From contig OZ244156.1 in assembly GCA_965216395.1 (NCBI GenBank), positions 1,096,765 to 1,160,764 of the forward strand: a DNA stretch of 64,000 bases, written 5' to 3'. The notes beneath the pieces are model-generated. The model was not told the origin of the DNA and did not search any database. It was given only the letters and a program-made list of their open reading frames with translations. Below are positions 49,028-64,000 of this stretch, in pieces; positions within the stretch are counted from its first letter, which is position 1; each line of letters starts with the position of its first letter. Made by a program: the position numbers and the translations under genes. The stretch comes from Alphaproteobacteria bacterium. Lineage in GTDB: Bacteria > Pseudomonadota > Alphaproteobacteria > Micavibrionales > SZUA-601.

Positions 49028-50026
49028 ATGGCAGTTTCAAATATAGGAAGAAGTTTAAACGAACAATTTCTTTTGCAACGTCTACGCAATGAATTGACCG
49101 ATGTTCAAACCCAGATTAACACTGGTAAAAAAGGAAATACTTTTAGCGCGCTTGACACGGCGGGTGCGTCTAATTCACTCTCATTTCGTAACAGTCGCAA
49201 TCTTTTGCAAAGCTATATCGATAGCATCAATATTGTGCGCGCGCGAACGGATGTTATGGATGCTGCGCTGTTAAGCGTAACGGATTCAAGTCGTGATGTA
49301 TTGACACGATTACAATCTCAATTACAAGACACAGCCCCCCAAACAGCCATTATCCGTGATGAAGCGCGCAATCAGCTCGAAGTCGTTTTACAAAAACTAA
49401 ATACGCGTTTTGGGGACCGTTATCTTTTTTCAGGTACAGATATCACAAACCCTCCCCATGATAACGCGACAGGTTTGAATACAAATTTTGCAGCCCAAGT
49501 TGCAACATGGATGGGAGGAACACCCACTGTTGCTTCTGTTGTTACCGATGCCAATACATTCAATGACGCTGCTCTTGGTTATTCAACAACTCTCTCCTCT
49601 GCGGGGAGCGTGACTGTACGCGCCGATGAAGGCACAGATATTGATTACACAGTTTTAGCCAACCAAGAAGGCATCCGTGATGTTATTCGTGGCCTTTCCA
49701 TTGTTGCTAATTTGCAAGACCCAACAACACCAGCAGAACAGGATAATTTTTGGACAATCGTTAATGGTGCCATTGAACTCATTGACAATGGAAGTCGTGT
49801 CATTGATGACCAAATTGGTATTTTGGGCAATAAATCAAGACAAATGGAAGATTTATTGGTACAACATGATGAAAGTCAAGGCGCATTAGAAATTTTTATT
49901 GGCAAAGTGGAAGATATTGACCTTGCCGATGCAGCAACACGTTTCAACTCACTTGAGCTACAGCTCCAAGCCTCTTATCAAGTCACGACAACGGCGCGTC
50001 AGTTAAGCTTGGTTAATTTTCTCTAA
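49028..50026 (+). CDS. flgL: Flagellar hook-associated protein 3
   Basis: Flagellin-like termini and a position directly after flgK. Confidence 0.8.
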   Translation: MAVSNIGRSLNEQFLLQRLRNELTDVQTQINTGKKGNTFSALDTAGASNSLSFRNSRNLLQSYIDSINIVRARTDVMDAALLSVTDSSRDVLTRLQSQLQDTAPQTAIIRDEARNQLEVVLQKLNTRFGDRYLFSGTDITNPPHDNATGLNTNFAAQVATWMGGTPTVASVVTDANTFNDAALGYSTTLSSAGSVTVRADEGTDIDYTVLANQEGIRDVIRGLSIVANLQDPTTPAEQDNFWTIVNGAIELIDNGSRVIDDQIGILGNKSRQMEDLLVQHDESQGALEIFIGKVEDIDLADAATRFNSLELQLQASYQVTTTARQLSLVNFL

Positions 50027-51099
50027 TCTGTAAATTTTTTTGCATCGCTAACCAGTGAATCAAGATCACTATAAACAGCTTGATTAACAATGATATTCAA
50101 ACCATAACGATGGCGAGAACAGGCAGATATCATCGTTTGACCATTCAATTTCTTAGTCATTGCAACAAAACTATGATCAATAGCCAAACCTTGCGCATCG
50201 TGTATATCTAAAGCATGTGATTGATTAATCAATGGCCAGATTACTTTGTTGGAAAAAGTTAAAATACGCGACTGTACCATTTCATTGATTGCCTTTGCCA
50301 CATTGCGATCTTGCGTTAAAATCAATCCTGTTTTTTTATAATTTTCATCGTGGCTACGCCATTTTAAATAGGTCATCACAGCTTCATCCATGGTCGCATA
50401 AGCATCAACCGCCCAAATAATACCATCATGATCCATCAGCGATTTGAGCGCTTTCTCAGTGTCTGATTGGTAGAGTTGCGTCATAAATTGTCTTTGAAAG
50501 TCTGTTTTCTGCCTAAAGCCAGTTTTTAATCGAAACCAGGTCTTTGGAAACTCTTTCTCCAAAGTGATAAGGGGCACGCCACCTTCTTTGGGCGTTTCTT
50601 GACGATAATCGCCCATTAAGACAAGTTTTTCCCATGATTGATCTACCGCCGCTTGCAAAATTTTTATCATCAAGCTTTCATCAATTAAACCAGCTTCATC
50701 AATAAAAACAACTGATCTTTCTGGAATAACATGTGTATTTTTTAAAAAATCATCAATTAAATAAATTTTTTGTTGGGATTTTTCTGATAATCGCAATACC
50801 GCTTGTTGTGAAAGCGAAAGACCAAAAACAGGAAAATTTATGCTATCATAAAACTGCATCGCTTGAGCTGCTAAATATGTTTTGGCTGATCCAGGGGGAC
50901 CACTCAAAATATTCATTTTATATTTTGATTGTAAAATTGACTTTAAAACGTCAGAACGGGTTTCAGGATCGTCTTCAGATGATAAACTATCATGAAAATC
51001 TTCAACAAATTTTTCACTGGCTTTTTGAATATGATCAGCAAAAATGATCTCTTTTTTAAAGAAAATTTTCGCATAAAAGATTAAATCACTTTGCGACAT
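50023..51099 (-). CDS. Compact SF1 (RecD/TraA-like) helicase-domain P-loop protein
   Basis: Walker A LSGPPGSAKTY and Walker B VVFIDEAGLID. The C-terminal IHDAQGLAIDHSFV...SACSRHRYGLNIIV resembles SF1 motifs V/VI. It is the last gene of the pilus operon strand. Confidence 0.55.
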   Translation of the reverse strand: MSQSDLIFYAKIFFKKEIIFADHIQKASEKFVEDFHDSLSSEDDPETRSDVLKSILQSKYKMNILSGPPGSAKTYLAAQAMQFYDSINFPVFGLSLSQQAVLRLSEKSQQKIYLIDDFLKNTHVIPERSVVFIDEAGLIDESLMIKILQAAVDQSWEKLVLMGDYRQETPKEGGVPLITLEKEFPKTWFRLKTGFRQKTDFQRQFMTQLYQSDTEKALKSLMDHDGIIWAVDAYATMDEAVMTYLKWRSHDENYKKTGLILTQDRNVAKAINEMVQSRILTFSNKVIWPLINQSHALDIHDAQGLAIDHSFVAMTKKLNGQTMISACSRHRYGLNIIVNQAVYSDLDSLVSDAKKFTD

Positions 51100-51102
51100 T
51101 TA

Positions 51103-51792
51103 TTATAAAATATTTTTTTCAGGAGAATAAGATGATGGTGCGGGTTTAATCTCTATAATCTTAGAACCATTACTGGCAAACATCCCCCCTAAAGATATGT
51201 CTTCTACAATCAGGCCATTGGGTAATTGATCGCCAACATAAACAGTTTGCCGTGTCATATCATCGCCATATGTTGGCGCAATAACAGCTTTACATGCCTG
51301 ATTAAGACATGTGATTTCTGACCAGACAAAATCTGAAACAGAAACATCCTCAACAACTGGGGCTGAGGCCTTTGATGTTTTTGGTAAATCCAAAGGTGGC
51401 ATCAGTTGCGGTAAACGTGCCGAAGACAAAACATAATCTTGATATAAATCGGCATAAAATTCAGCGCATACATCATTACCAGGCAGTTGTTTACAAATAT
51501 CATATTCAGGGGCAGGCATTTCAAACGGAACGCCAATATCAGAAAAATTTTCGGCAATTTGATTCAGTTCTTCTTGCCGGTCAATCATTTTTTCAAGCAA
51601 AGCGACCTGATTTTGTAACTGTAAAATACTCGACATATAGTCATTATTATATACAAATTGAATTTCAGGCGTTTCCTGCGGTTTTTGAATTTGATTGGCA
51701 CCAAAAATACCCTGTGCATGCGCATGATGTGCTGCCATACTCGGGATCAACGTAATCAAAATTACAAAAATGGTCTTCATTAAAATATTCAT
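51103..51792 (-). CDS. Secreted protein with a PilP-like C-terminal beta domain
   Basis: It has a signal peptide. The C-terminal QTVYVGDQLPNGLIVEDISLGGMFA...IIEIKP parallels ATVKKGEQLSDGSKVQEISIRGVEV...VIVL of the PilP-position gene. Confidence 0.4.
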   Translation of the reverse strand: MNILMKTIFVILITLIPSMAAHHAHAQGIFGANQIQKPQETPEIQFVYNNDYMSSILQLQNQVALLEKMIDRQEELNQIAENFSDIGVPFEMPAPEYDICKQLPGNDVCAEFYADLYQDYVLSSARLPQLMPPLDLPKTSKASAPVVEDVSVSDFVWSEITCLNQACKAVIAPTYGDDMTRQTVYVGDQLPNGLIVEDISLGGMFASNGSKIIEIKPAPSSYSPEKNIL

Positions 51793-51834
51793 AAGGTTAA
51801 TTTGCCTGAAAGGCGTTTAAAAGAGATTAAAATT

Positions 51835-53082
51835 CTAACAATTTGGCCCATATTGATCGTTAATGCCACCTGGTTGAATGGTCACACAGTCATCCACTGT
51901 CAAAACTTCAACAACCGCAGCGCCATTCACCACAGCATCCCCGTTAACGGTGACATTATTATTCACCGTCATTTCATCGGTTTGCGCCGAAACAGCATTA
52001 AGCTCATTCGCATTGAGCGTGTTGGCCTGTATCTCACCATCGGCAAGCACAGAACCGCTAACAATCAGATCACTAGCCAGCGTTGCATCGGCTGATACGC
52101 TTATGTTTGTAGCCGAGATATCAGGCGCATTCACAACAGACGCATTGACCGTATTCACATTCACCGTCGCCGCATCAATATTACCACTTCCCGCTGAACC
52201 ATCTCCAACGATCAAATCCCCTTGTGATAAAGTTAAATCATCCACAACATAAATTTGATCATCAACATTTAATGTCCCACCGATATCAACCGACCCGACA
52301 AAGGTCGTATCGCCATCAACCTGTAATTGTTGAATCGTTGCCGATGTTTCAACCTCTAAATCATTGACATCCATTTCACCAACGGCACGAATGGCGTTAC
52401 CATTCATGTTTAAATCCGTAAACATTGTGTTACGATCTGGATCCCCGACATCATTACGATATAAATAAGGTCCGAAAGCTTCTTCTAAGCTCAAAGAAAG
52501 GTAAGAAACCAGATAACCTGCATCATCATCGGCATCAGTTGGCGGGGCACCGAAAGGTAAGCCAAAATTGACCGTTAAATCGGTCGTCCATAAACCAAAA
52601 GCGCTTTCAGCAATATTCGATGGCGTTAAAATATTAGATGCATACCCACCCGAAGCGCCCGAAGAACGCGCTGCTGGTAAAAGTTTATCATAAGCAACAG
52701 CCCCATCTGTATAAATAACAGCTTGATATTCAACATTTGGTGGCGGGGTAATATTGAGACGAACCCGTAGGTCTTGTCGCAATGGGTTGCGCATCGTCAT
52801 TCCCGTGGGAAGTTGAGCCGCTATTTCAGCCGTAATATCTGTATTATCAATTAATGTACCCGGGTTAGGCGCATTAATTCGAATATAATTCTCAACAATT
52901 TCTGTGATTTTTTGCATGTGCACACCACTGAGCTCAGCCAGTTGCCGGTTAGCCCATAAACTGCTCAATCGGCCAAAACCAATAATCAAGGTAGCTGTTA
53001 ATCCAACAACCAGCAATAATTCTAACAGTGTAAAACCTTGCTGATTATTACACATTTTCTTGATATTTTGTGTTTGTATCAT
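51835..53082 (-). CDS. PilV-like large minor pilin or tip adhesin with a beta-helix-like repeat C-terminus
   Basis: Prepilin N-terminus NNQQG/FTLLELLLVVGLTATLIIG. The C-terminal ~200 aa are degenerate V/N/D/G/T repeats (VNVNTVNASVVNAPDISATNISVSADATL...) ending in Cys residues. Confidence 0.65.
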   Translation of the reverse strand: MIQTQNIKKMCNNQQGFTLLELLLVVGLTATLIIGFGRLSSLWANRQLAELSGVHMQKITEIVENYIRINAPNPGTLIDNTDITAEIAAQLPTGMTMRNPLRQDLRVRLNITPPPNVEYQAVIYTDGAVAYDKLLPAARSSGASGGYASNILTPSNIAESAFGLWTTDLTVNFGLPFGAPPTDADDDAGYLVSYLSLSLEEAFGPYLYRNDVGDPDRNTMFTDLNMNGNAIRAVGEMDVNDLEVETSATIQQLQVDGDTTFVGSVDIGGTLNVDDQIYVVDDLTLSQGDLIVGDGSAGSGNIDAATVNVNTVNASVVNAPDISATNISVSADATLASDLIVSGSVLADGEIQANTLNANELNAVSAQTDEMTVNNNVTVNGDAVVNGAAVVEVLTVDDCVTIQPGGINDQYGPNC

Positions 53083-53093
53083 ACCTTTTACCT

Positions 53094-54656
53094 TTAAAGT
53101 GGGTTGGCTGGCGGGTCCGTAATTGCATCAGGACAAGCCGCCCCGAAACAATCAATATTAATATTAATATCGCCATTATTAATGATAAACTCGCCCCCTG
53201 AATCAATCGTCATAGAGCCAAAATCACTGCTGTTCATCGTCGCATCATCCACAACCATCTGCCCTACCGAAGCCGAAGCATCTGCCCCAACGAGATTAAT
53301 ATTATTAGGCCCAATATCAATATTGGCGGTTGGGGCTTGTATATCACCATCATTGGTACCATTAGCTTGTACGGCTAATACGCCCGAGGGATCTGCTTGT
53401 GTGAATTCACCCAGAACGATCAAATCATTACCATCTGTAACATTAATAGCCAAACTGGATGACTGCTCCGTTAAAACATCGATAATGGCAATTTCATCAG
53501 AAACATTCAGCGCCGCAGCGTGACCGCCCCCTTCAGTTAAACTGCCTGAAATAATTTCAACATTACCATCAACAATCATACCGTTACTACCATTCAAATC
53601 CTCTGTCACTAAGTCATCAGAAACAGATACATCCTGTGCTAAAACTCCACCACCATTAACTGTCATCGTTGCTAAACCATAATAAGCGCTTGCCGTATCT
53701 GTGGTCCCCACCTGCATATTGATGGCATTTAAATTCTGCGCGTCAATAAAACTGACATTAGAAATGGCATTATTCACCCCACCGCCATCAAAACGAATTT
53801 CTGAGACATTAACTGTTTGGGCATCGGGGCGACCTGGTTGTGGATAACGATAAACAATATCTTGATTACTACCTTCTTGGTTGGTTTCCCAAGATGGTGC
53901 AATCGCATCATTCTCATCTAAATTGGCAACATAATTGGCCTGATTGGTGATTACATCTAAATCACTGGACGTTAAACAGTCATTGGGATTATCACCCCAA
54001 CGCGTATATTCCACCACACCATTACACAACCGTGTTGAGGGCTGTAAGACAGGGTTTGCGCCTGAATCTTGCGCTTGTCCTATTCGTAATAATCCAACCG
54101 ATGACGCACCTGCACGAAATGCGGCAATATCAGATCCTGTACGCACTTGATTGGGCCTCAACGTGATATCAATGATGGTAAATGCGGTCGGCGCAGAATT
54201 TGGAGCTCCCCCGCGCGGTGCTAAATCCGCATAAGACGTTATTTGAACATCTTGGTATTTTTGGCGATTCAATTGAAAATTTGACGGCAAAAAATTATTA
54301 GCAATTAAATCATTAATCGTCACTTGGTTGCCCCCCACCCCTGCACCATTCAAAAATGTATCTCTTTGGGGGTTGCCAGCATAATCAGGGTCATAAGCCA
54401 CGGTTTGTACGTATAAATGAGACGCTTTAGCCACTTGGGCAAATTGCTGGCCCATCGCATAGTTAATTTCCCAATTAAATTCTTTTTTTTCAACAAAAGC
54501 CAACGATGTATAACCCGCCCCAAGCAATAAAATAAGCGCAAGCATACCTAAAAACAGGTAACCACTTTCAGCTTTATAAGAGCGGACAAGGCTTTGATTC
54601 GTTTGCATATATCGCAAAACCCATCCTAAAACTTTGTTTTTAAACAATAATAACAC
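53094..54656 (-). CDS. Second large pilin-like protein with a beta-helix-like repeat C-terminus
   Basis: N-terminal hydrophobic helix after ...KAESG/YLFLGMLALILLLGAGYTSLAF (non-canonical, no Glu5). The C-terminal repeats are similar in composition to the neighbouring gene and end CFGAAC. Confidence 0.55.
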   Translation of the reverse strand: MLLLFKNKVLGWVLRYMQTNQSLVRSYKAESGYLFLGMLALILLLGAGYTSLAFVEKKEFNWEINYAMGQQFAQVAKASHLYVQTVAYDPDYAGNPQRDTFLNGAGVGGNQVTINDLIANNFLPSNFQLNRQKYQDVQITSYADLAPRGGAPNSAPTAFTIIDITLRPNQVRTGSDIAAFRAGASSVGLLRIGQAQDSGANPVLQPSTRLCNGVVEYTRWGDNPNDCLTSSDLDVITNQANYVANLDENDAIAPSWETNQEGSNQDIVYRYPQPGRPDAQTVNVSEIRFDGGGVNNAISNVSFIDAQNLNAINMQVGTTDTASAYYGLATMTVNGGGVLAQDVSVSDDLVTEDLNGSNGMIVDGNVEIISGSLTEGGGHAAALNVSDEIAIIDVLTEQSSSLAINVTDGNDLIVLGEFTQADPSGVLAVQANGTNDGDIQAPTANIDIGPNNINLVGADASASVGQMVVDDATMNSSDFGSMTIDSGGEFIINNGDININIDCFGAACPDAITDPPANPL

Positions 54657-54778
54657 TTAAATTCAATTCCCAATCCTTTATAACTACAGATTGATCATAC
54701 ATAAACAACCCTAATAAACAGTATACCACAATTTATATAAAATTTTAAGTATATTTTATAAATAAACTTTCATCTTAA

Positions 54779-54811
54779 TAAAAAAAGCCACCCAAATATG
54801 AGTGGCTTTTT
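54779..54811. terminator. Terminator or attenuator after the major pilin gene
   Basis: AAAAAAAGCCACC-loop-GAGTGGCTTTTT. On the minus strand the hairpin is followed by a U-run. Confidence 0.7.
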
Positions 54812-54829
54812 AAGAATATCATTTTAATT

Positions 54830-55333
54830 TTAATTGAAAGTCCATTCCATGCTTTCACCACCTTCACAACCATCAACCAAATCAGAAACAAGCGTAGGTG
54901 AGTCAACACCACTGGCAGCAACGTTCAGATCAATCACATCAGAAGGATCGGTAATGGCTGTACCCAATTTGATACATGGGTTTTCTGGGACATCTTCGAA
55001 TGTCACAGTAAAGTTTGAATCATTCGTTCCAGAAGGTTCAACCGTAATATCACCATTAAACGGGTGTTTACCCGAATCAGGAATAGCACCCAATCCTATC
55101 ATAACAGCCGTGCTTATACCGTCATAGCTTGACTGATTCTGATAAAGATTTTGAGCCTCTTGCTTAATTTGTAACAATAGACGTGTACCGTCACTGACCT
55201 TATTGCCTTCTGTGACAAGACGGTATGTTGCGATACCACCAATTAAGAGTAAGGCACCAACACCAACAACCAAAAGCAATTCAAGCAGTGTGAAGCCTGA
55301 CTGGCGATCCTTTGTTTTATTATTTGAATTCAT
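54830..55333 (-). CDS. pilS: Major prepilin
   Basis: MNSNNKTKDRQSG/FTLLELLLVVGVGALLLIGG (G-1, F+1, E+5), 167 aa, a C-terminal Cys pair, and a terminator immediately downstream. Confidence 0.8.
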   Translation of the reverse strand: MNSNNKTKDRQSGFTLLELLLVVGVGALLLIGGIATYRLVTEGNKVSDGTRLLLQIKQEAQNLYQNQSSYDGISTAVMIGLGAIPDSGKHPFNGDITVEPSGTNDSNFTVTFEDVPENPCIKLGTAITDPSDVIDLNVAASGVDSPTLVSDLVDGCEGGESMEWTFN

Positions 55334-55346
55334 TTTTTTCTCCTAT

Positions 55347-56408
55347 TTAAAGTGATGATGCTGCTTGGATTTGTTGAACGACTCCAAACAGCGCTGTAAT
55401 TAGTAATCCCATTGTAACCGCAATAAGCACAAGTGCAACCGTATTTGCAATTTTCATAGCCGAAGATATATTTGTTTCCACATCTTGAACCCATTCACGC
55501 GTTACGTTTACTAGATTATCCTCGAAACCTTTTAACGTTGCGTAAACGCGAAGATCATCAATCAATTCTTCATCAGGGAAATCAAACCCCGTTCGAGCCA
55601 TGGCTTCTCCTAAATTATGTCCCGCAGAGATTTCATGACTAATCGCATTAATACGTTCCGAAAGATAGGGCGGAACTTTATTCGATATCCGTCGCAAAGA
55701 AACACCATCAATTTTCACCCCTGAAGACATCAAAGACGCAATAGATAATAAGAAAGAGGATCCCTGCCACATGCGATAAACACTCCATGGAACGATTTTT
55801 TCAACCACCATACGCGATTTCCCCGTCCAACGCGGCAAAGAATACGAAATAATGATCATTGCTGATAAAAGAATCATAAAAATCATTAAACCATTCTCTT
55901 TTATAAAATTAGAAGCATAGGCAATTTTCTGTGGTGTCCCGGTCCAATCTTCGATTGGCATTACTTCTGCAAAGGTCGGAATAACATTGTAAGAAGCCAT
56001 CGCTAAAGCCGCAATCAAGATCACAATCAACAAAGCAGGATAAGCACCGCTACTGATAATCGCATTTTTGACGCGTCTCTGGGCTTCAACCGCTTCGGCG
56101 GCGTTCAAAAGTGAATCTTGTAGCTTACCCGAATCACTGCCCGATTCAAGGAGCATACTTTCCCCCGTTGGCACATAATAGCCAATACAAGTTCCAAAAT
56201 TAACACCATTTTCAACTTGATTTCGCCATTTCAAAATTAAATCAGCTAGACCGTGTCGGCGACGTTTTTTTTCTAAAAAAGCGATCTGCGTTAACCCTGC
56301 ATCCAATGACACGCCATTACGTAGTAATTGTGATAATTTACGATAAAAACGCATACGCGTTTTAATATCAAATTGAAACAATATCGTTAAACGTTCACCT
56401 AAAGTCAT
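55347..56408 (-). CDS. pilR: Pilus platform protein (GspF/PilC family)
   Basis: Polytopic membrane protein with two GspF-like repeats, positioned between the ATPase and the prepilin as in R64 and PAPI-1. Confidence 0.75.
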   Translation of the reverse strand: MTLGERLTILFQFDIKTRMRFYRKLSQLLRNGVSLDAGLTQIAFLEKKRRRHGLADLILKWRNQVENGVNFGTCIGYYVPTGESMLLESGSDSGKLQDSLLNAAEAVEAQRRVKNAIISSGAYPALLIVILIAALAMASYNVIPTFAEVMPIEDWTGTPQKIAYASNFIKENGLMIFMILLSAMIIISYSLPRWTGKSRMVVEKIVPWSVYRMWQGSSFLLSIASLMSSGVKIDGVSLRRISNKVPPYLSERINAISHEISAGHNLGEAMARTGFDFPDEELIDDLRVYATLKGFEDNLVNVTREWVQDVETNISSAMKIANTVALVLIAVTMGLLITALFGVVQQIQAASSL

Positions 56409-57985
56409 GACGCATCTTCTCGATTGGGTCGAACCAGCGGACCAACGACTTTTTCAGCATCCACAGGGTCACATTCGCCAGCAATCACACGATCAATCAT
56501 GTGTTCAACCATATTGCGCCCGCCTAAATTTTTAAGCCAATGATCTTCTGCACCGGCTTTGTTATCTGCACGCACATATTCCATGAATTTTTCATCTGGA
56601 ATAATAATCTCTGCGACCAAAGTTCGACCCACATAACCTTTACCATCGCCACAATTTTCACAGCCCTTTTCATTGTGAAGACGAATTTTTTCCATGGGCA
56701 CGCCCGCTTCATCAAGGCGCGCCATAAGAGAATAAGAAATTTCATCTCCTGAAACGACAGGACGACTACATTGAGGACATAAAACACGTACTAAACGTTG
56801 CGAAATCAAACCTGTTAACAGCGTAGGATCACCGAGTTTAAAACTTTCAACTTTCAAATCACGCAAACGAAACGGAATTGTCACCGCATCATTACTATGC
56901 AGGGTTGTCCATACTTGGTGACCCGTCATGGCGGCTTCAAAAGCAAGCTGTGCGGAGGCTGCATCACGCACCTCACCGATCATCAAACGATCTGGATTGG
57001 AACGCAGTGAAGCTGCAATGGCTTTGGTAAATGCAGCTTCGCGTTCCTCAGCCGTCGCCGCATTAACAACCGGCATCTGTACCGCACCAGGAATGGGATA
57101 TTCAGGCGGATCTTCAACCGTATAGATAGCAATATTATTTTTATGTTCTTTTAAGATTGAGATAATATTACGTTGCAATGTTGTTGATTTACCATGACCC
57201 GTTGGCCCTGCAACAACATTAATACCAAAAGGCAAAGCCCGTAAATATTCAAAATCTTCGATCTGTTCTGGAGAGAAACCAAGCGCACTGACATCGCCTT
57301 CCGTCTTTTCATCACTGTCATAAAGAAGACGCACAATCATCACCCGCCCACCATAGACTATGGGATTAAACTGCAAACGAAGTGAGATCACACCATCAGG
57401 AAGACGCAGGTCTTTACGATTGGAAACACGGGCGCCTTGATATTCGTAAGGCTGATAGTTAACGTCAGACGCATCGGCCATTGTAAACGCCGCTGCACAG
57501 AAACTATGGCCATAATCAGGTGGCCATTCGGCAATTTGTTGCATCATCCCATCAATACGGGCACGCACGATACACGAATTTTCACCCACAACGACATGAA
57601 TATCCGACGCGCGACGTTTCGATACTTTTGCAACCAAATCAATGACTTCACGTCGCATACGTGCATCATCACGACCAATACGTGACGATTCTTGTTGTGC
57701 CTTAGCGTAACATGCGGTTATGGAGCTAATATCCACCGCTTCTATTTCTGGCTCAGGAAAACCTTCAATCTTAATTTCTTCAATAAAACTTAGAATCTGT
57801 GGATTATTCATGTGCGATTTTGACACCATTAAACGCCCATCAGAAAAATAAGCAGCAATGGAACGGATCTGATGACCGCGATCAAGCACCCCGCCCTCAA
57901 TCGTTAGAGGGATATCAGGATTTAGATCTGCAAGTTTAATTTTTTTCTTTTTAAAAAGATCCATACCTATCGCTCTTCCTGCCAA
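56405..57985 (-). CDS. pilQ: Pilus assembly ATPase (GspE/PilB family)
   Basis: Walker A GPTGHGKSTT, Asp/His boxes (IGEVRD, TGHQVWTTLHSN) and a tetra-Cys motif CPQC...CENC. Confidence 0.9.
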   Translation of the reverse strand: MAGRAIGMDLFKKKKIKLADLNPDIPLTIEGGVLDRGHQIRSIAAYFSDGRLMVSKSHMNNPQILSFIEEIKIEGFPEPEIEAVDISSITACYAKAQQESSRIGRDDARMRREVIDLVAKVSKRRASDIHVVVGENSCIVRARIDGMMQQIAEWPPDYGHSFCAAAFTMADASDVNYQPYEYQGARVSNRKDLRLPDGVISLRLQFNPIVYGGRVMIVRLLYDSDEKTEGDVSALGFSPEQIEDFEYLRALPFGINVVAGPTGHGKSTTLQRNIISILKEHKNNIAIYTVEDPPEYPIPGAVQMPVVNAATAEEREAAFTKAIAASLRSNPDRLMIGEVRDAASAQLAFEAAMTGHQVWTTLHSNDAVTIPFRLRDLKVESFKLGDPTLLTGLISQRLVRVLCPQCSRPVVSGDEISYSLMARLDEAGVPMEKIRLHNEKGCENCGDGKGYVGRTLVAEIIIPDEKFMEYVRADNKAGAEDHWLKNLGGRNMVEHMIDRVIAGECDPVDAEKVVGPLVRPNREDAS

Positions 57986-58521
57986 TCCAATACGATTACC
58001 TTACCTTTTTTATTTTTCACCTCAACACCACGGATAGAAATTTCTTGTACTTTTGAACCATCGCTCAACTGTTCACCTTTTTTAACAGTGGCCAGCATCC
58101 CTTCAGACGTGATAAGTTGTGCTTGTAATTGCCCATCTTTACCCCATACACGACGAACAAACCATTGCGAGGTATTTTGTAATGGTTTTTGATTTAATAC
58201 TGGTGCGATATTTTCTTCAATTTCTGCCGCACTAATAGGTTGCAACATTTTCATATCAATCGGTGTCGGATTACCCAATAAGGCTGAATTGTTTGAAAAT
58301 TTCTCAGACGCAAGTTCATTAAGCTCTTGAAGTAATTTAGATCTTTCGACACATAAGGAAAGACGATCAATATCTTCTTGTACACGTGCCAAATCTGATG
58401 GAACAACCATTGCTTCCACTTGAGGATCGGGACATAAAACTTCAGCTGCTTTTACCAATGTCGGAGACATTAAAAAAATCATCACAGCTAAGAAATAAAA
58501 AAAACTCTGCATATTATTCAC
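57967..58521 (-). CDS. Periplasmic pilus biogenesis protein in the PilP position
   Basis: Signal peptide, matching size and gene order, and a C-terminal beta domain. Assigned by position, not by motif. Confidence 0.5.
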   Translation of the reverse strand: MNNMQSFFYFLAVMIFLMSPTLVKAAEVLCPDPQVEAMVVPSDLARVQEDIDRLSLCVERSKLLQELNELASEKFSNNSALLGNPTPIDMKMLQPISAAEIEENIAPVLNQKPLQNTSQWFVRRVWGKDGQLQAQLITSEGMLATVKKGEQLSDGSKVQEISIRGVEVKNKKGKVIVLDWQEER

Positions 58522-59803
58522 CTTTTCTTTTCGTCATGATTTTGGCCTTATACATCCAATCACCTTTGTCTACATCCCACGTAATTTTTTGAACCTCCAT
58601 ACCAACAAGGTCAAAATATCCAGCGAGTGTTTTGGGCGAAACGGTTGTTTTCAACTCAATTTCTATATAGGGGCGCTCGGGTAATTTTGGTCGTTCACCT
58701 TTTTTCGGTGGGGGGGGCGGCTTGGGCGTCACAGGCTTAATTTTTAAACGACCAATATTATTCAAACGTTGTTCAAGATTAAAAATCGCTTGTTCATTTG
58801 AAAGCCAATTTTCCTGTTGAAATAACGATAATTCTTTTAATGGCATAGAAGCAAGTAAACTACGCCCTTTAATAGACACACGCGCCGAAGAAGGAAAATC
58901 TTTCATGTAATTACGGGCAATATTCATACTGCCAACCGTTTTTTGCCACTCAACAGTAACACCACTTGGGCTACATGTCATCATGACTAATGGCCAACCA
59001 GGTATCGGGCGAATAATCTGACCCGCTGTTTGACCACATGTATCAATGAGGACACTGGGTCTGGGGAGTTGAATGATTTTTTCTTCTTCTGGTTGACTTA
59101 AATCAGGGAGCGCCGCCACTTCTTTGGGTAACTGAGAATAGGCTGATAATTTTTTTTCAATTTTTGGTTTTTCCGGTACTTTAATCGGTTTTGGGAACAG
59201 AACAGGCATTAAGAAATAAGCAAAAACACCCAGCACACAGATCACAAAAGCAAGCGTTGCAAGTTGTAAATTTTTAGTGCTACCAAAAAAGGATGTAAGA
59301 CTTGTTGCTTGAAGCACAGCACCGTTTTTCCAATCACCAATCAGGTCGGACAAATCAATCTCTTCGATATCTAAATCCCATTCTTTTGGCGCATAAGCAT
59401 GAGGCCAATTATGATTATCAGCCCCTTCCATAAAAGCATTATAGGCGTCTTCTTCTGAAGCAAAAAATTGATCGCCATGCGGAGAAACAGTGTCTGAATG
59501 AACTTGTAAATACCACCAACCATTATCGGCTTTGAAAACGCCATGCCAATCCCCAACCATTTTATCAACAGCAATGGAAGCAATCGCTGTCATGCCAGCG
59601 CGGTGGCCTTTGTCCAACCACCCAATACCATGCTGATTAACAATCGAGGATCTCAAACAATAAAAGTCTCCTTGTGCTTTTCGAACGCGGTGACGTGCTA
59701 ATTTTTTATCGTCATCTTCATTGACCAATAACCACAGTAAACCAACGGCATATTTTTTACCGTTAAAAATCAAAACACCGTCGTTTTTATTATCTGCTCG
59801 CAA
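58514..59803 (-). CDS. Bitopic pilus biogenesis protein in the PilO position
   Basis: 429 aa with one central TM (LATLAFVICVLGVFAYFLMPVLF). Size and order match R64 PilO. Confidence 0.5.
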   Translation of the reverse strand: MRADNKNDGVLIFNGKKYAVGLLWLLVNEDDDKKLARHRVRKAQGDFYCLRSSIVNQHGIGWLDKGHRAGMTAIASIAVDKMVGDWHGVFKADNGWWYLQVHSDTVSPHGDQFFASEEDAYNAFMEGADNHNWPHAYAPKEWDLDIEEIDLSDLIGDWKNGAVLQATSLTSFFGSTKNLQLATLAFVICVLGVFAYFLMPVLFPKPIKVPEKPKIEKKLSAYSQLPKEVAALPDLSQPEEEKIIQLPRPSVLIDTCGQTAGQIIRPIPGWPLVMMTCSPSGVTVEWQKTVGSMNIARNYMKDFPSSARVSIKGRSLLASMPLKELSLFQQENWLSNEQAIFNLEQRLNNIGRLKIKPVTPKPPPPPKKGERPKLPERPYIEIELKTTVSPKTLAGYFDLVGMEVQKITWDVDKGDWMYKAKIMTKRKGE

Positions 59804-59836
59804 AGTTTAATACTCTATTTTTTCTTAATCAATGAA

Positions 59837-61462
59837 TTACTGTGTCAATACGCTGATCGGTTCTTCTGGCAATACATCTGTTGTAATCAATAGAACACGA
59901 ATTTCGCGACCATGGCCAAAACGTTTTTGTCCACCAGTAAACATATTCCATGAAACACCTGTGCCCGATTCAAGATCATTAGCGACCTTTTTCTCAAAAC
60001 CGGCCAGAACGAGGGTTTCACCATCAGATAAAATAGCATTTTGTAAGAAACCCGTCGTGTCGACTTCTGGTAACTGAATTGAAGAATCGCCTGCATTAAA
60101 TTCACGTAAAGCCACCAGATCTGTAATACCTACAGCAAGACGAAGCATAACTTTATCACGTTGAATCACGCGCGGGAGAACATTCATCGTCAAACCGATA
60201 TCAATTGTTCCCGGTTCAAGAGAAAGCGAGGATGTCGTATCTGAAGAAGACCCTGAAACACGCGCCACGTAAGAGCGTTTCGTCGCCACCTGTAACGGTG
60301 CGGGTTGATCAGAAAGCGTCACAATCGATCCAGAATGCACCACTGAAACCTCTTGCGCCACAGCAGAAAGCGCATTGATTACGGCCTGAACAGAACCATC
60401 CGTACCTAAGTTTCCAGGAATTTCTCTAACCAAACCCGTTGAAACATCGCGTCCATCGCCTAAACCACTCGCTAAACTGGAAAAGATAAAGGGTTGGTCA
60501 TTGAAAACATCTTTCAATACTACATCAAGATCAAAATTATAATCATTAGAATTGTCCAAAGTTACAGATAATACCTGTACCTCAATAGCAACACGACGAA
60601 GACGAAGCTTGTTCTGCATTTCAAGATATTTTTCTACATCTTTAACCACGGATGGTGAACCCGCCACCGTCACAGTCCCTGTTGTTGGAGAAAAACTCAC
60701 GCGAGCGCGCGATTCTGTGATACTTGAAATGGCTTCTTCAATTTCTTCCCAAATAGATAATGTTGTTGATGTATCAACGGATTGTTGTGGCAAACCACTT
60801 TCAGCACCGCTTGGACCTGTCTTAACACTGCCCCCAACTTCGGTTGAACCGGCTAATGAGTGAAGCATAAAAGTCCGCACAACATGTTTTGAAAGAACAA
60901 TTGACTTACCATCATAATGCCATTGCGCATCGAAACGGTCAGAAACCTGATCAAGGACATCTGACAAAGCCCCTTGCCACAAAATCCGACCTCCAGAAAC
61001 TTCTGTACCACCTGCTGGTAAAAACCGCGTTTGCTGATCACGCCCATCTTCACTTCCCGCTTCTACAATAACACGAATACCTGTTGTCCCCTGAATCGTT
61101 CGCGCCACTTCGTATAATGTCAGCGGCTTATCAAAAGTAATAATCAATGCCTCATTATGATCAACAGATTTAGGCAAAAGCGTTCCATTTTCAGAAAGAA
61201 TAGCCCGTTCACCAAACCAAGGCTCATTTTTAATGCTGAGAGAGGTTTTTTGACCTGAGTCAAAAGAACGGATTTCTTGCAAAGCTCTTTCAGCAGAGCT
61301 ACGGATTTCTTGTGATTTTTCCCTTGCCTCTTCTCTTTGAGCGCAACTCATCAACGGCAAGATAAGTATGGATAGTAAGAGAAAAAATTTCAAAGATTGA
61401 AGGATTGAATAACGCATAGGAGATACCAATTTGATAATATTAAATGTCATAATGAACCACAA
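59837..61462 (-). CDS. pilN: Secretin lipoprotein (type IVb PilN/TcpC-like)
   Basis: Lipobox ILPLMSC. The C-terminal secretin-like region ends ...GREIRVLLITTDVLPEEP. Confidence 0.75.
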   Translation of the reverse strand: MWFIMTFNIIKLVSPMRYSILQSLKFFLLLSILILPLMSCAQREEAREKSQEIRSSAERALQEIRSFDSGQKTSLSIKNEPWFGERAILSENGTLLPKSVDHNEALIITFDKPLTLYEVARTIQGTTGIRVIVEAGSEDGRDQQTRFLPAGGTEVSGGRILWQGALSDVLDQVSDRFDAQWHYDGKSIVLSKHVVRTFMLHSLAGSTEVGGSVKTGPSGAESGLPQQSVDTSTTLSIWEEIEEAISSITESRARVSFSPTTGTVTVAGSPSVVKDVEKYLEMQNKLRLRRVAIEVQVLSVTLDNSNDYNFDLDVVLKDVFNDQPFIFSSLASGLGDGRDVSTGLVREIPGNLGTDGSVQAVINALSAVAQEVSVVHSGSIVTLSDQPAPLQVATKRSYVARVSGSSSDTTSSLSLEPGTIDIGLTMNVLPRVIQRDKVMLRLAVGITDLVALREFNAGDSSIQLPEVDTTGFLQNAILSDGETLVLAGFEKKVANDLESGTGVSWNMFTGGQKRFGHGREIRVLLITTDVLPEEPISVLTQ

Positions 61463-61579
61463 TGATTAAAAAGAACTTCGTGATCTGTATTTTGCTCATG
61501 AATTAGTTAATGATAACATAATAAACGCAGATCAAAAGACCTGATATTAAGCTTTTTTTATAATAATTTAAAAAACGAA

Positions 61580-63091
61580 TTAACCGTCAAGGTTTTCCGT
61601 TTCAATGACCAAGACAGGTTGACCAGAAGGTTGATTAAGGTGTAAACGACCCAAAGGACGCGGTTCTGCACTTGAAAGGCCATCTAAAACAGTTTGAACA
61701 GCCTTTTCAAAACTCCCAGAAATATTCACATCCACTTGAATTGGATAATTAAATTTTGATTTCCAAACCAAAGAAACATTTGCTTGTTCAGCCCAGTCCA
61801 CTAAAATAGATCGCAATGTCGCACCACTATCGGCTTGCCATTGATACCCACCCGATATCATTGAATTTTGTGACATCATATTATTACCAAACGTTGATTC
61901 AACGAATTCACCTTCTTGTTGAGATTGGTTTGAAACCACGCCTTGCATAGCAGTCGTTTTTTGTGAACCGTTATTCAAATACGTCGTTGGCACAAAAGGT
62001 TTAACCTGATGAACACTTGATGGTGGAGTTAATTCCATCGGTTGGCCAATAGAAAGCTCAGAAAGCTCTAAACGGTCAGAACGTACTAATAAACTTTGTG
62101 GCTCATTTGATATTTTTTGATCCAACTGAATTGGTTGTGCACTTTTTTGAAGTGACATAGTTTTTGGCAAAACATCACGCATTGGTTTTTCATCAACCAA
62201 CAAATCGTTGATCGGACTTTGTGATAAAGGTTTCTTAGGCATTTGCACAACAGGTGTTAATTCAACTGGGGCCATTTTATCGTTCTCGTGCATTTCTTGT
62301 TTTTGGACAATTTTTGTTTTTTGTGCCATTGCCATTTCAACAGGCGGGGTAGATCGTAAATAAATCACATTCCCAGATATCTCAGCAGAAACACCATGCG
62401 CGCGCGTCATGTCAGAAACAACCTCATCCCATGGCTTACCACCTCGCCAATCCACTTTCATACCTGGATTAACACTATCCGCAAAAACATAACGGTAATC
62501 AGCCGGTACAATTTGTTGTAAAGCAATAACCAAAGGCACTTGGGTAGCAAAGCCTTGCGCCACCTGTTTATCTGATACAGCTAATTCAACAGGTTGTGAA
62601 AACTCAGAGTTTTTAAAAGAGTTATCGTCTGATTTCATAACCATATCGGGTAACTTACCTTTCATCTCTTGCTTAGTACTCATATCGCTGGACTTCGTTT
62701 CAGAGGCGATCAGAATTTTTTTGTTTTTAACAGGTAAGGAAGACACAGATTTTTTTTGTTTTGGTAAAATTTCCTTTAAAGTCGTTTGAATATTTCCCAT
62801 CCATGTTTTCGTTTCAGTTTCTTCAACATTCATCGGTGATGACTGAACTTCGGGTTTAAGCTCAGGTTTAGACTCAGGCTCAGTTTTGATATCACGCGTT
62901 TTATTTTCAACAAGATTTTCTGATAAAACAGTTTCAGAAACAACCTTCTCTTCCACCACTTTCGGGGCCGACATACTGGGCTCTTGATTAATAGGCGCGA
63001 CGAACTCAAAACCAGCTTGAACATATGTTGGCATAACAGATATTGCTAAAATGAACGCAGTTCCGATGTATAAATTTGAACGATGAGCCAT
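61580..63091 (-). CDS. pilL: PilL-like protein with two TcpQ-type domains
   Basis: It has a signal peptide. The central VPLVIALQQIVPADYRYVFADSVNPGMKVDWRGGKPWDEVVSDMTRAHGVSAEISGNVIYL and the C-terminal YQWQADSGATLRSILVDWAEQANVSLVWKSKFNYPIQVDVNISGSFEKAVQTVL both fit the TcpQ/PilL C-terminal domain pattern. Confidence 0.6.
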   Translation of the reverse strand: MAHRSNLYIGTAFILAISVMPTYVQAGFEFVAPINQEPSMSAPKVVEEKVVSETVLSENLVENKTRDIKTEPESKPELKPEVQSSPMNVEETETKTWMGNIQTTLKEILPKQKKSVSSLPVKNKKILIASETKSSDMSTKQEMKGKLPDMVMKSDDNSFKNSEFSQPVELAVSDKQVAQGFATQVPLVIALQQIVPADYRYVFADSVNPGMKVDWRGGKPWDEVVSDMTRAHGVSAEISGNVIYLRSTPPVEMAMAQKTKIVQKQEMHENDKMAPVELTPVVQMPKKPLSQSPINDLLVDEKPMRDVLPKTMSLQKSAQPIQLDQKISNEPQSLLVRSDRLELSELSIGQPMELTPPSSVHQVKPFVPTTYLNNGSQKTTAMQGVVSNQSQQEGEFVESTFGNNMMSQNSMISGGYQWQADSGATLRSILVDWAEQANVSLVWKSKFNYPIQVDVNISGSFEKAVQTVLDGLSSAEPRPLGRLHLNQPSGQPVLVIETENLDG

Positions 63092-63185
63092 TATTGAGTC
63101 CCTTATTTATTTTTTAATTTATTTTGATATTCTGAAGTGTCTTGTATCAATATGCAAGAGATAGAAGTAATTCGCTAATTTTTTT

Positions 63186-63467
63186 TTAAAATCCACCATA
63201 ATCTTTAAATTCACGTCGATTTATTTTAAGTAGAGCAGGTCTTTTTTGACCAATAAACCAAACACGTACTCTGCGCATAGCCAACGGAACTGTTAATCCA
63301 AAACGTTCCAAAATAGCAAAAAAAACAACGGACAAAATCGCTAAAATAAAAGTCCATAAGCGAATATGAATCAGAAATAACAACAAAAACCCCGCTGCAC
63401 GCGCATCTACATTAAAAAACCGAACGGCTCTTGCTGTGTTACGCCAGTGATTTTGTGCGTTAAACAT
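63186..63467 (-). CDS. icmT: IcmT/TraK-family small membrane protein (type IVB secretion)
   Basis: NHWRNTARAVRFFNVDARAAGFLLLFLIHIRLWTFILAILSVVFFAILERFGLTVPLAMRRVRVW closely follows the IcmT/TraK pattern. I place the start at 63467, where ATGTTTAA overlaps the upstream stop. Confidence 0.75.
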   Translation of the reverse strand: MFNAQNHWRNTARAVRFFNVDARAAGFLLLFLIHIRLWTFILAILSVVFFAILERFGLTVPLAMRRVRVWFIGQKRPALLKINRREFKDYGGF

Positions 63468-64000
63468 TTTCTTCACCTGACCCTTTTGCAATCAGCATGT
63501 AATGGCGTTTTTCAATCAAGCCTTCATCATAAGCCATTTTCGCAGATTGTACCATTGTACGCCCTCTCTCAGGGAGAATTTTCAAAAGCTCAATAACCCA
63601 TTTTTCATGATCCATACTAAGGAATTTTTCCCGTAATTCATCATCAAAAACCAACCATTCACGCAATCCTACGCGCCCACCACCAATGCGGGGCAATAAT
63701 GTTTGTGTCACGATTAACCGCATAGATTCCATCAAAGAATAGGCGCGCTCATTGCGCTCAGAATGGTCAAAAGCAACAACCATACGCCGAATGGTTGCGG
63801 CCACACCATTCGTATGCACAGTTGTGTATACTGCGTGACCCGTTTGCGCCGCCTCAATAGCGGCTGCAATCGTTTCTCTATCACGTGATTCGCCCACTAA
63901 AATAATATTGGGTTTACGGCGTAAGGCGTTACGCACACCTGCTTCAAAACTTTTTAGATGACGCGGTATTTCTGTTTGAGCAATCAAACTCGTAGGGCCT
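63460..64000 (-). CDS. PilT/DotB-type hexameric secretion ATPase, C-terminal part; continues past the right window edge
   Basis: NIILVGESRDRETIAAAIEAAQTGHAVYTTVHTNGVAATIRRM (Asp/His boxes). The frame is open to position 64000 (...GPTSLIAQTEIPRH), since the track M is an internal TTG. The DotB/TraJ assignment is favoured by translational coupling to icmT/traK. Confidence 0.7.
   Translation of the reverse strand, partial: GPTSLIAQTEIPRHLKSFEAGVRNALRRKPNIILVGESRDRETIAAAIEAAQTGHAVYTTVHTNGVAATIRRMVVAFDHSERNERAYSLMESMRLIVTQTLLPRIGGGRVGLREWLVFDDELREKFLSMDHEKWVIELLKILPERGRTMVQSAKMAYDEGLIEKRHYMLIAKGSGEENV

Follow-up and report, generated by a model that had tools for sequence, protein, structure and literature searches.

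A chromosomal type IVB secretion gene block joined to a type IVb thin-pilus operon beside the flagellar genes of a Micavibrio relative

At the right-hand end of a 64,000-nucleotide stretch of the chromosome of an alphaproteobacterium of the Micavibrionales (GenBank assembly GCA_965216395.1, contig OZ244156.1, forward-strand positions 1,096,765 to 1,160,764), 13 co-directional minus-strand open reading frames (ORFs) occupy positions 50023-64000 and bring together genes of a type IVB secretion system (T4BSS, the Dot/Icm class) and genes of a type IVb thin pilus. The whole stretch, called the window here, corresponds to C1:1096765-1160764 of a genome that consists of a single contig of 1.65 Mb with 38.9% GC. 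A preliminary description of the window had proposed either an integrated conjugative element of the I type or a Dot/Icm-like translocator with an associated pilus, and the question raised by the locus is which of the two it is and what such a combination does in this organism. We consider it probable that the block is an arm of a chromosomal type IVB machine, of the Dot/Icm or mating-pair formation MPF_I class, together with a complete type IVb thin pilus, and that it is an old, inherited system functioning in cell contact and substrate delivery.

The families of the window ORFs were assigned by Pfam and NCBIfam profile searches, and the ORFs together with these searches bore out the positions and order of the 13 genes and their convergence with flgL. 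The gene at the window end encodes the C-terminal 179 codons of dotB (63460-64000, minus strand as all genes of the block; TIGR02524, 194 bits for the partial gene), and the full protein of 411 aa extends past the window. Full-length DotB scored 386 bits with TIGR02524, as against 231 bits for plasmid TraJ and 209 bits for PilT, and among solved structures it scored 350 bits with Legionella DotB (6geb) and 141 bits with the best PilT. The candidate identity of a PilT retraction motor was rejected, because both the DotB profiles and Legionella DotB score far higher, and the ATPase that had been described as DotB/TraJ-like is thus a DotB. The next gene, icmT/traK (ORF 63186-63491; 63186-63467 when counted from the ATG), encodes a 93-aa protein that falls inside the IcmT/TraK family (NF038220, 97 bits against a cut-off of 40), and direct reading of the sequence confirmed that the dotB stop and the icmT start overlap as ATGTTTAA (63467-63460).

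Beyond position 64000, where the preliminary description had recommended looking for dotC and dotD (traI and traH), both genes were found adjoining dotB just outside the window. DotC/TraI (PF16932, 250 bits) comes first and is followed upstream by DotD, a transglycosylase with an SLT domain and a DsbG-like protein; DotC and DotD also gave 145 and 71 bits, respectively, with chains of the solved Legionella core complex. The neighbouring sequence thus holds further type IVB genes and the small protein belongs to IcmT/TraK, so that neither of the two findings named beforehand as counting against the description, a neighbourhood lacking type IVB components and a 93-aa protein outside that family, was made. 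The transglycosylase gene also qualifies a statement of that description, since none is present in the window, as it had said, but one exists just outside, upstream of dotD.

The window region therefore represents the distal 14 kb of a co-directional array of approximately 17.4 kb that runs from the dsbG-like gene to a small helicase gene, in the order dsbG-like, slt, dotD, dotC, dotB, icmT, pilL-like, pilN, pilO, pilP, pilQ, pilR and pilS, with a terminator, two large pilin-like genes, a gene for a 229-aa protein and the helicase gene distal to pilS. Its first half makes up one arm of a type IVB machine that is itself complete, namely two outer-membrane lipoproteins (DotC and DotD), an ATPase (DotB) and a small membrane protein (IcmT), with a cell-wall-cutting enzyme and a disulfide isomerase in front. 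The array is tight, neighbouring genes overlapping or being separated by short gaps. On one side, beyond the dsbG-like gene, it is flanked by housekeeping genes (Bax1-I, aldo-keto reductase, permease and UbiH), and on the other by flgK-flgL.

The remaining parts of the type IVB machine were sought in the whole genome, and icmB/dotO, icmE/dotG and dotL were all present at other chromosomal sites. A first site (C1:126-137 kb) carries icmL, icmK, icmE (with a TrbI domain), two DUF6750 genes at the icmC/icmD position, icmJ/dotN and a gene for a 1021-aa protein, which stand in the Legionella order icmL-K-E-G-C-D-J-B. DotI, DotH, DotG, DotN and DotO are accordingly encoded at one site, DotA at a second (1036 kb), and DotM and the coupling protein DotL at a third (1642-1646 kb), besides the window locus. 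The flanks of these other loci are housekeeping genes. Profile searches and searches of PDB sequences gave no match for the 1021-aa IcmB/DotO candidate, and a tblastn search of plasmids found 37% identity to an annotated IcmB of a Xanthomonas plasmid and 43% (42-44%) to genes of Methylorubrum and Bosea megaplasmids. At the level of gene content, a Dot/Icm-like system with an associated pilus, one of the two readings offered beforehand, is thus supported, dotC and dotD being adjacent and the rest of the machine lying elsewhere in the genome.

Several further observations concern these loci. The closest plasmid relatives of the IcmB/DotO protein are poorly annotated genes of alphaproteobacterial megaplasmids and not those of IncI- or Legionella-type replicons; the megaplasmids are NC_012811 (Methylorubrum extorquens AM1), NZ_CP016463 (Bosea sp. 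RAC05; locus L122) and NZ_CP140867. The Bosea copy has an A24 peptidase and a TraM-recognition coupling protein in its vicinity, and no comparable dot-pil arm was found around it. A second, diverged paralogue of IcmL/DotI (75 bits) is encoded at C1:1541173-1541850, remote from every other T4BSS gene and between genes for a tRNA methyltransferase and an ABC transporter, and may be a DotJ-like partner. Directly upstream of dotM lies a defence-like gene for an OLD-family AAA_15/TOPRIM nuclease (C1:1646522-1648147), and a gene for a 173-aa protein stands between dotM and dotL. A Tad-type prepilin peptidase, short at 159 aa, and a VWA protein resembling TadG are encoded 1-3 kb downstream of icmB (C1:123145-125346).

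The pilus half of the array begins with the pilL-like gene (61580-63091, 503 aa), which encodes a periplasmic protein of the BfpG/TcpQ type (PF10671 TcpQ at residues 417-482). It is followed by pilN (59837-61462), the lipoprotein secretin of the type IVb pilus, which has a lipobox and a Secretin domain and whose best profile match was TIGR02520; in tblastn it matched the annotated PilN genes of IncI and pND6-2 plasmids. The next genes encode PilO (58514-59803), a PilO2-type pilin accessory protein (PAP_PilO) that matched PF06864 from end to end with 66.9 bits; PilP (57967-58521), which lay just above the cut-off of TIGR03021 (35.1 bits against 34.65); the pilus assembly ATPase PilQ (56405-57985) of the GspE/PilB class (T2SSE, PF00437, 231 bits), which along its entire length is 31-33% identical to its counterparts in IncI and pND6-2; and the inner-membrane platform PilR (55347-56408) of the GspF/PilC class, with two stretches matching PF00482 (T2SSF). 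The major type IVb prepilin PilS (54830-55333) matched PF08805, Bundlin and N_methyl and has a 13-residue leader, a G|F processing site and Glu5. When compared with annotated plasmids, the genes from pilO to pilS are present in the order of the R64/IncI thin pilus.

Behind pilS we found an intrinsic terminator (approximately 54811-54780), a GC-rich hairpin with a T-run that is visible both in the sequence and in the fold, the spacer 3' of pilS having a folding z of -2.96; the terminator reported in the preliminary description is therefore real. Scans for promoters and terminators gave counts at background level, and only this terminator was retained, after the folding check. The consensus scan also marked a promoter-like site past the terminator (54748-54720).

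To place the locus in the history of its lineage, 320 genomes of a Micavibrionales-like order, distributed over eight families (f1-f8), were surveyed, and 31 loci around DotC or PilN were inspected, 25 of which were DotC-centred and belonged to other families. DotC was present in 307 of the 320 genomes and in all eight families. The order dsbG-slt-dotD-dotC-dotB-icmT-pilL-like was found in 23 of the 25 DotC-centred loci, and in 16 of the 25 the block was convergent with flgL-flgK, which is the same site as here. A PilN orthologue was detected in 37 of the 320 genomes and in six families, usually at this site (f1 7/9, f3 3/3, f4 1/1, f5 10/237, f6 12/15 and f8 3/3, with 0/9 in f2 and 0/42 in f7), and five complete genomes without the pilus had no PilN-type secretin anywhere. 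The full fused dot-pil order was seen in 12 of the 17 pilus-bearing loci with enough flanking sequence. Trees of DotC plus DotB and of PilN plus PilQ plus PilR, each for 13 genomes, agreed in every strongly supported clade.

The composition and borders of the block told in the same direction. Its GC content (40.7%) is near that of the genome (38.9%), and no integrase, tRNA, repeats or shufflon were found flanking it. The order-wide presence of DotC, the conserved site at flgL, the agreeing trees, the GC content and the missing tRNA, integrase and shufflon together indicate an old chromosomal resident from which the pilus part was repeatedly lost, and an old, conserved chromosomal block does not support a recently integrated element. 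The arrangement derives from an ancestor resembling an I-type plasmid, whose gene order survives on plasmids of the pND6-2 type; the block was fixed in the chromosome before the families of the order diverged, and most lineages afterwards lost the pilus genes while keeping the dot genes and the pilL-like gene.

The pilL-like gene deserves separate consideration, because it stays with the dot genes when the pilus is gone. Its product has a Sec signal and two small N0-like domains (residues ~178-250 and 412-500) joined by long, disordered, Pro-rich linkers. The assignment as PilL-like held for the TcpQ domain and the BfpG fold, but the lipobox cysteine is missing and a Sec signal is found instead. 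In the AlphaFold model the predicted local distance difference test (pLDDT) exceeded 90 in both small domains, and the top Foldseek match was BfpG in the BfpB-BfpG secretin complex (9u5s; template-modelling score 0.86, root-mean-square deviation 1.8 A); behind it ranked N0 domains of secretins, VirB7 of Xanthomonas and, with a weak match, DotD. Both domains also matched the TcpQ-family gene of pND6-2. Fifteen homologues share the signal peptide, a mature end of the GFEW type and a pair of conserved blocks; a word-based search for homologues of this protein retrieved just nine close relatives and was uninformative. The gene was intact beside icmT in genomes without pilN-pilV and without any PilN-type secretin (L056, L058, L063, L066, L069, L071, L076 and L079). 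Where PilN exists, the PilL-like protein is most simply the partner of PilN, and its persistence beside icmT where PilN is missing suggests that it may have a second role with the outer-membrane complex of the T4BSS.

Comparison with known systems showed that this architecture already exists on plasmids. The plasmid pND6-2 of Pseudomonas putida ND6 (NC_018746) and related P. aeruginosa plasmids carry DotD/TraH, DotC, the ATPase, IcmT/TraK, a TcpQ-family PilL, PilN, PilO2, PilP, ATPase, platform, pilin and PilV. The identities to pND6-2 were 40% for DotC, 47% for IcmT, 35% for DotB, 32-39% for the PilL domains, 30% for PilR and 27% for PilV, and these values (27-47%) were the highest measured to any annotated plasmid locus, above those to IncI plasmids. 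Since its gene order is shared by pND6-2, the union of dotDCB-icmT with a thin pilus is an architecture already present on plasmids and was not invented in this lineage. The differences are that pND6-2, being a plasmid, carries genes for replication and partition, that ParM and a further gene separate its icmT from pilL, and that a PilT-like ATPase stands before its pilV, whereas the locus studied here is chromosomal, has slt and the dsbG-like gene in front, two large pilin-like genes and a helicase, has no retraction-type ATPase, and is accompanied by a T4BSS whose remaining parts are scattered.

The likeness to the thin-pilus region of IncI plasmids, which the preliminary description had drawn with R64, held for the gene content and failed for the gene order. 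IncI1 R64 and IncI-gamma plasmids share the pilus parts L, N, O, P, Q, R, S and V and carry traH-I-J-K, homologous to DotD-DotC-DotB-IcmT, close by in the same orientation. In IncI-gamma/K1 plasmids the order is pilI...M-N-O-P-Q-R-S-T-U-V, shufflon, rci, traE-F-G and then traH-I-J with a 96-aa gene. The pil genes of IncI plasmids thus precede traE-K, unlike those of pND6-2-type plasmids, which have the order seen here, and the identities to the present locus are 25-33%. The IncI clusters also have their own PilM, the transglycosylase PilT and the peptidase PilU, the PilV shufflon with Rci, and the NikB relaxase, none of which is at the locus studied here; the transglycosylase gene here is upstream of dotD and the prepilin peptidases are elsewhere in the genome, unlike the PilT and PilU of R64, which lie within its cluster.

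With the Legionella Dot/Icm system the locus shares a location on the chromosome, the lack of a relaxase at the locus, the division over several loci and the DotL/DotM/DotN coupling complex; it differs in that the host is an alphaproteobacterium with cultured relatives that prey on bacteria, and in that IcmS was not found in a search for which there was no positive control. We know of no thin pilus attached to dotDCB in the Legionellales. The BfpB-BfpG pair of enteropathogenic Escherichia coli and the TcpC-TcpQ pair of Vibrio cholerae offer the closest parallel for the secretin, the C-terminal domain of the PilL-like protein having the BfpG fold and the TcpQ Pfam domain and PilN being a lipoprotein secretin like BfpB. 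Unlike BfpG and TcpQ, the PilL-like protein is much longer, has a second N0-like domain and disordered linkers, and persists without the secretin.

Distal to the terminator, two PilV-like large pilins had been reported. The second of them (51835-53082, 415 aa) was upheld as a PilV-like minor pilin or tip adhesin, since it has N_methyl with a canonical prepilin motif and is homologous to the N-terminal part of PilV of pND6-2, annotated as a tip adhesin, with 27% identity across 288 aa (E 7e-12). The first (53094-54656, 520 aa) had no family match and has a degenerate pilin-like N-terminus, hydrophobic after G|Y but without Glu5, so that we describe it as a large pilin-like protein; relatives carry homologues of it in the corresponding place, with 24-42% identity. 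In comparison with a genome of the same genus, identity is 42-53% for the PilV-like proteins and 84-86% for PilQ and PilR. The following gene encodes a secreted protein of 229 aa of unknown family (51103-51792), without a family match and with homologues occupying this position in G252, G254 and a further metagenome-assembled genome (MAG). It had been proposed as a paralogue of PilP, which was unsupported, as BLASTP revealed no significant similarity to PilP (E 0.46).

The array closes with a minimal SF1B helicase of the RecD/Dda type (50023-51099, 358 aa; AAA_30, 86 bits), in agreement with the small SF1 helicase-like protein of the preliminary description. The Ti-type TraA family (TraA_Ti) matched the helicase part only, the match to RecD2 (3e1s) was weak, and its Atlas clusters were all AAA_30/Viral_helicase1. 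Among the relatives' loci that were examined, a helicase at the operon end was seen only in the same genus. The helicase gene is convergent with flgL, the two stop codons overlapping by four bases (50023-50026), and no terminator was detected between them. Shufflon repeats and a recombinase (Rci) were sought at the locus and none were found. As had been stated, a prepilin peptidase is absent from the window, and the search elsewhere in the genome revealed two, one at C1:123 kb beside a Tad cluster and another at C1:261 kb beside another secretin cluster of a pilus or type II secretion system. The Tad genes, the type IVb pilus described here and the further secretin cluster at C1:255-275 kb imply at least three pilus-type systems in this genome.

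How the two halves would work together is suggested by analogy. In IncI plasmids such as R64 a homologous thin pilus serves a homologous T4BSS. By way of its variable, fast-diverging PilV-like tip proteins, the thin pilus would establish and maintain contact with a target cell; docking and the translocation of substrates, of which proteins are the most probable, would then fall to the T4BSS. The close packing of the genes suggests that both machines are made together, and from this spacing we infer that the dot and pil halves may be co-transcribed. The terminator behind pilS would lower the expression of the tip proteins relative to that of the major pilin and would thereby set the ratio of pilin to tip. 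The target could be bacterial prey, as expected for relatives of Micavibrio, or a eukaryotic host.

Several observations weigh against a pilus-assisted type IVB machine of this kind. Two of the profile assignments lie below their equivalog cut-offs, DotB reaching 386 of the 463 bits of TIGR02524, yet far above TraJ and PilT, and PilN 227 of the 288 bits of TIGR02520. The operon has no prepilin peptidase of its own. A look-up of sequencing runs identified four of the DNA type that hold the window and none of RNA, so that co-transcription is proposed from gene spacing. IcmS (PF12608) was not found in the genome, a search without a positive control to which we give no weight. The pilus cluster lies apart from the dot genes in G254, G264, G317, G060 and L102; as it is unlinked in these relatives, the dot-pil linkage is not obligatory. 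Finally, most of the order keeps the T4BSS without this pilus, indicating that the pilus is dispensable for the machine.

With regard to the target, a possible but doubtful alternative is a eukaryotic host cell, against which machine and pilus would be directed as they are in Legionella and Coxiella; the family with small genomes would then be associated with protists. The genome is small (1.65 Mb, 38.9% GC) and DotB resembles its Legionella namesake more closely than it does plasmid TraJ. To our knowledge, the characterised T4BSSs without a relaxase all target eukaryotic cells (cf. PMC9418006). Against this stand the retention of a full flagellum and the presence of the same block (dsbG-slt-dotD-dotC-dotB-icmT-pilL-like) beside flgL in the relative G103, a genome that is likewise a single contig (C1 ~2426500-2446499, L056). 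The ATP/ADP translocase (PF03219), like IcmS, was not found in searches that had no positive control, and these two results were given no weight. Moreover, those members of the order that have been brought into culture all prey on bacteria as epibionts (PMC3189940).

The predatory habit leads to a more specific proposal, which we put forward tentatively: in the Micavibrionales a Dot/Icm-type machine, aided in some lineages by the pilus, may be a contact-dependent weapon of epibiotic predators, in which variable PilV-like tips would pick the prey, the T4BSS would inject effectors into bacteria and the PilL-like protein would belong to the outer-membrane portion of the T4BSS as a component peculiar to this lineage. 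If true, no earlier type IVB system would have had bacteria as its target.

We regard it as unlikely that the pilus works alone, in adhesion to surfaces or cells, aggregation or DNA uptake, and that its place behind dotDCB-icmT is a plasmid relic without functional coupling. Approximately 88% of the genomes of the order keep the T4BSS without PilN, and the five complete pilus-less genomes without a PilN-type secretin, the genomes in which the pilus cluster is unlinked from the dot genes, and the 94-bp gap between icmT and pilL, in which the consensus scan marked promoter-like sites, are all compatible with an independent pilus. However, the fused order in 12 of the 17 pilus loci, the co-divergence of the pilus with the dot genes and the established role of the homologous IncI pilus in serving a homologous T4BSS argue for coupling.

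The remaining alternative is that the block is an integrated I-type conjugative element, either an integrative and conjugative element (ICE) or an IncI/pND6-2-like plasmid, or a recent remnant of one, whose main job would be DNA transfer with the pilus stabilising mating pairs. The closest named relatives of all parts are borne by conjugative plasmids of the MPF_I class, and pND6-2 has an identical gene order; a RecD/TraA-like helicase closes the operon; and the genome holds an unlinked MOBP relaxase (PF03432, 75.6 bits, C1:389.5-390.6 kb) and a VirD4-like coupling protein (C1:389-395 kb), which could in principle use the machine. Nevertheless, the relaxase module is 760 kb from the block, no relaxase was found at the window locus or within the other three T4BSS loci, and a MobA/MobL search of the genome found none. 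The features of an ICE, namely a relaxase with oriT and an integrase with att or tRNA borders, were not present at the locus, and in place of the patchy distribution and foreign composition expected of such an element the block is order-wide at one site, showing neither flanking repeats nor a shufflon nor a GC anomaly. The T4BSS genes are spread over four chromosomal sites, the flgL-adjacent site is occupied across families with DotC in 307 of 320 genomes, and the helicase is restricted to one genus. We therefore set aside the integrated conjugative element, the other option of the preliminary description, as very improbable. As a separate observation, the relaxase belongs to a small mobilisation module (C1:389529-395119) that consists of the MOBP relaxase gene, a small upstream gene and a gene for a VirD4-like coupling protein of 457 aa; the module has no mating-pair genes of its own and might ride on the T4BSS.

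The type of machine described here, an MPF_I type IVB system with a thin pilus, is already known, and its order exists on pND6-2-type plasmids; the significance of the locus lies in its placement, as a fixed, order-wide chromosomal system among relatives of Micavibrio, whose only cultured species are obligate bacterial predators. Our literature search for Micavibrio together with Dot/Icm, T4SS or T4BSS found no dedicated paper. The sole published trace that it returned is a count made in passing of seven Micavibrionales MAGs with pT4SSi by Needham et al. 2022 (PMC9418006), and the genome paper of M. aeruginosavorus ARL-13 reported no evidence of type III or type IV secretion systems (PMC3189940). 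Two points stand out for the lineage as a whole, the presence of a T4BSS in the face of that statement and the retention of the pilL-like gene with the dot genes where the pilus has been lost. The locus itself is complete, on one contig and with all of its pilus and dot genes intact, which makes it suitable for tests of whether the T4BSS and its pilus take part in cell contact and predation, and it captures a conjugative system at one stage of its domestication.

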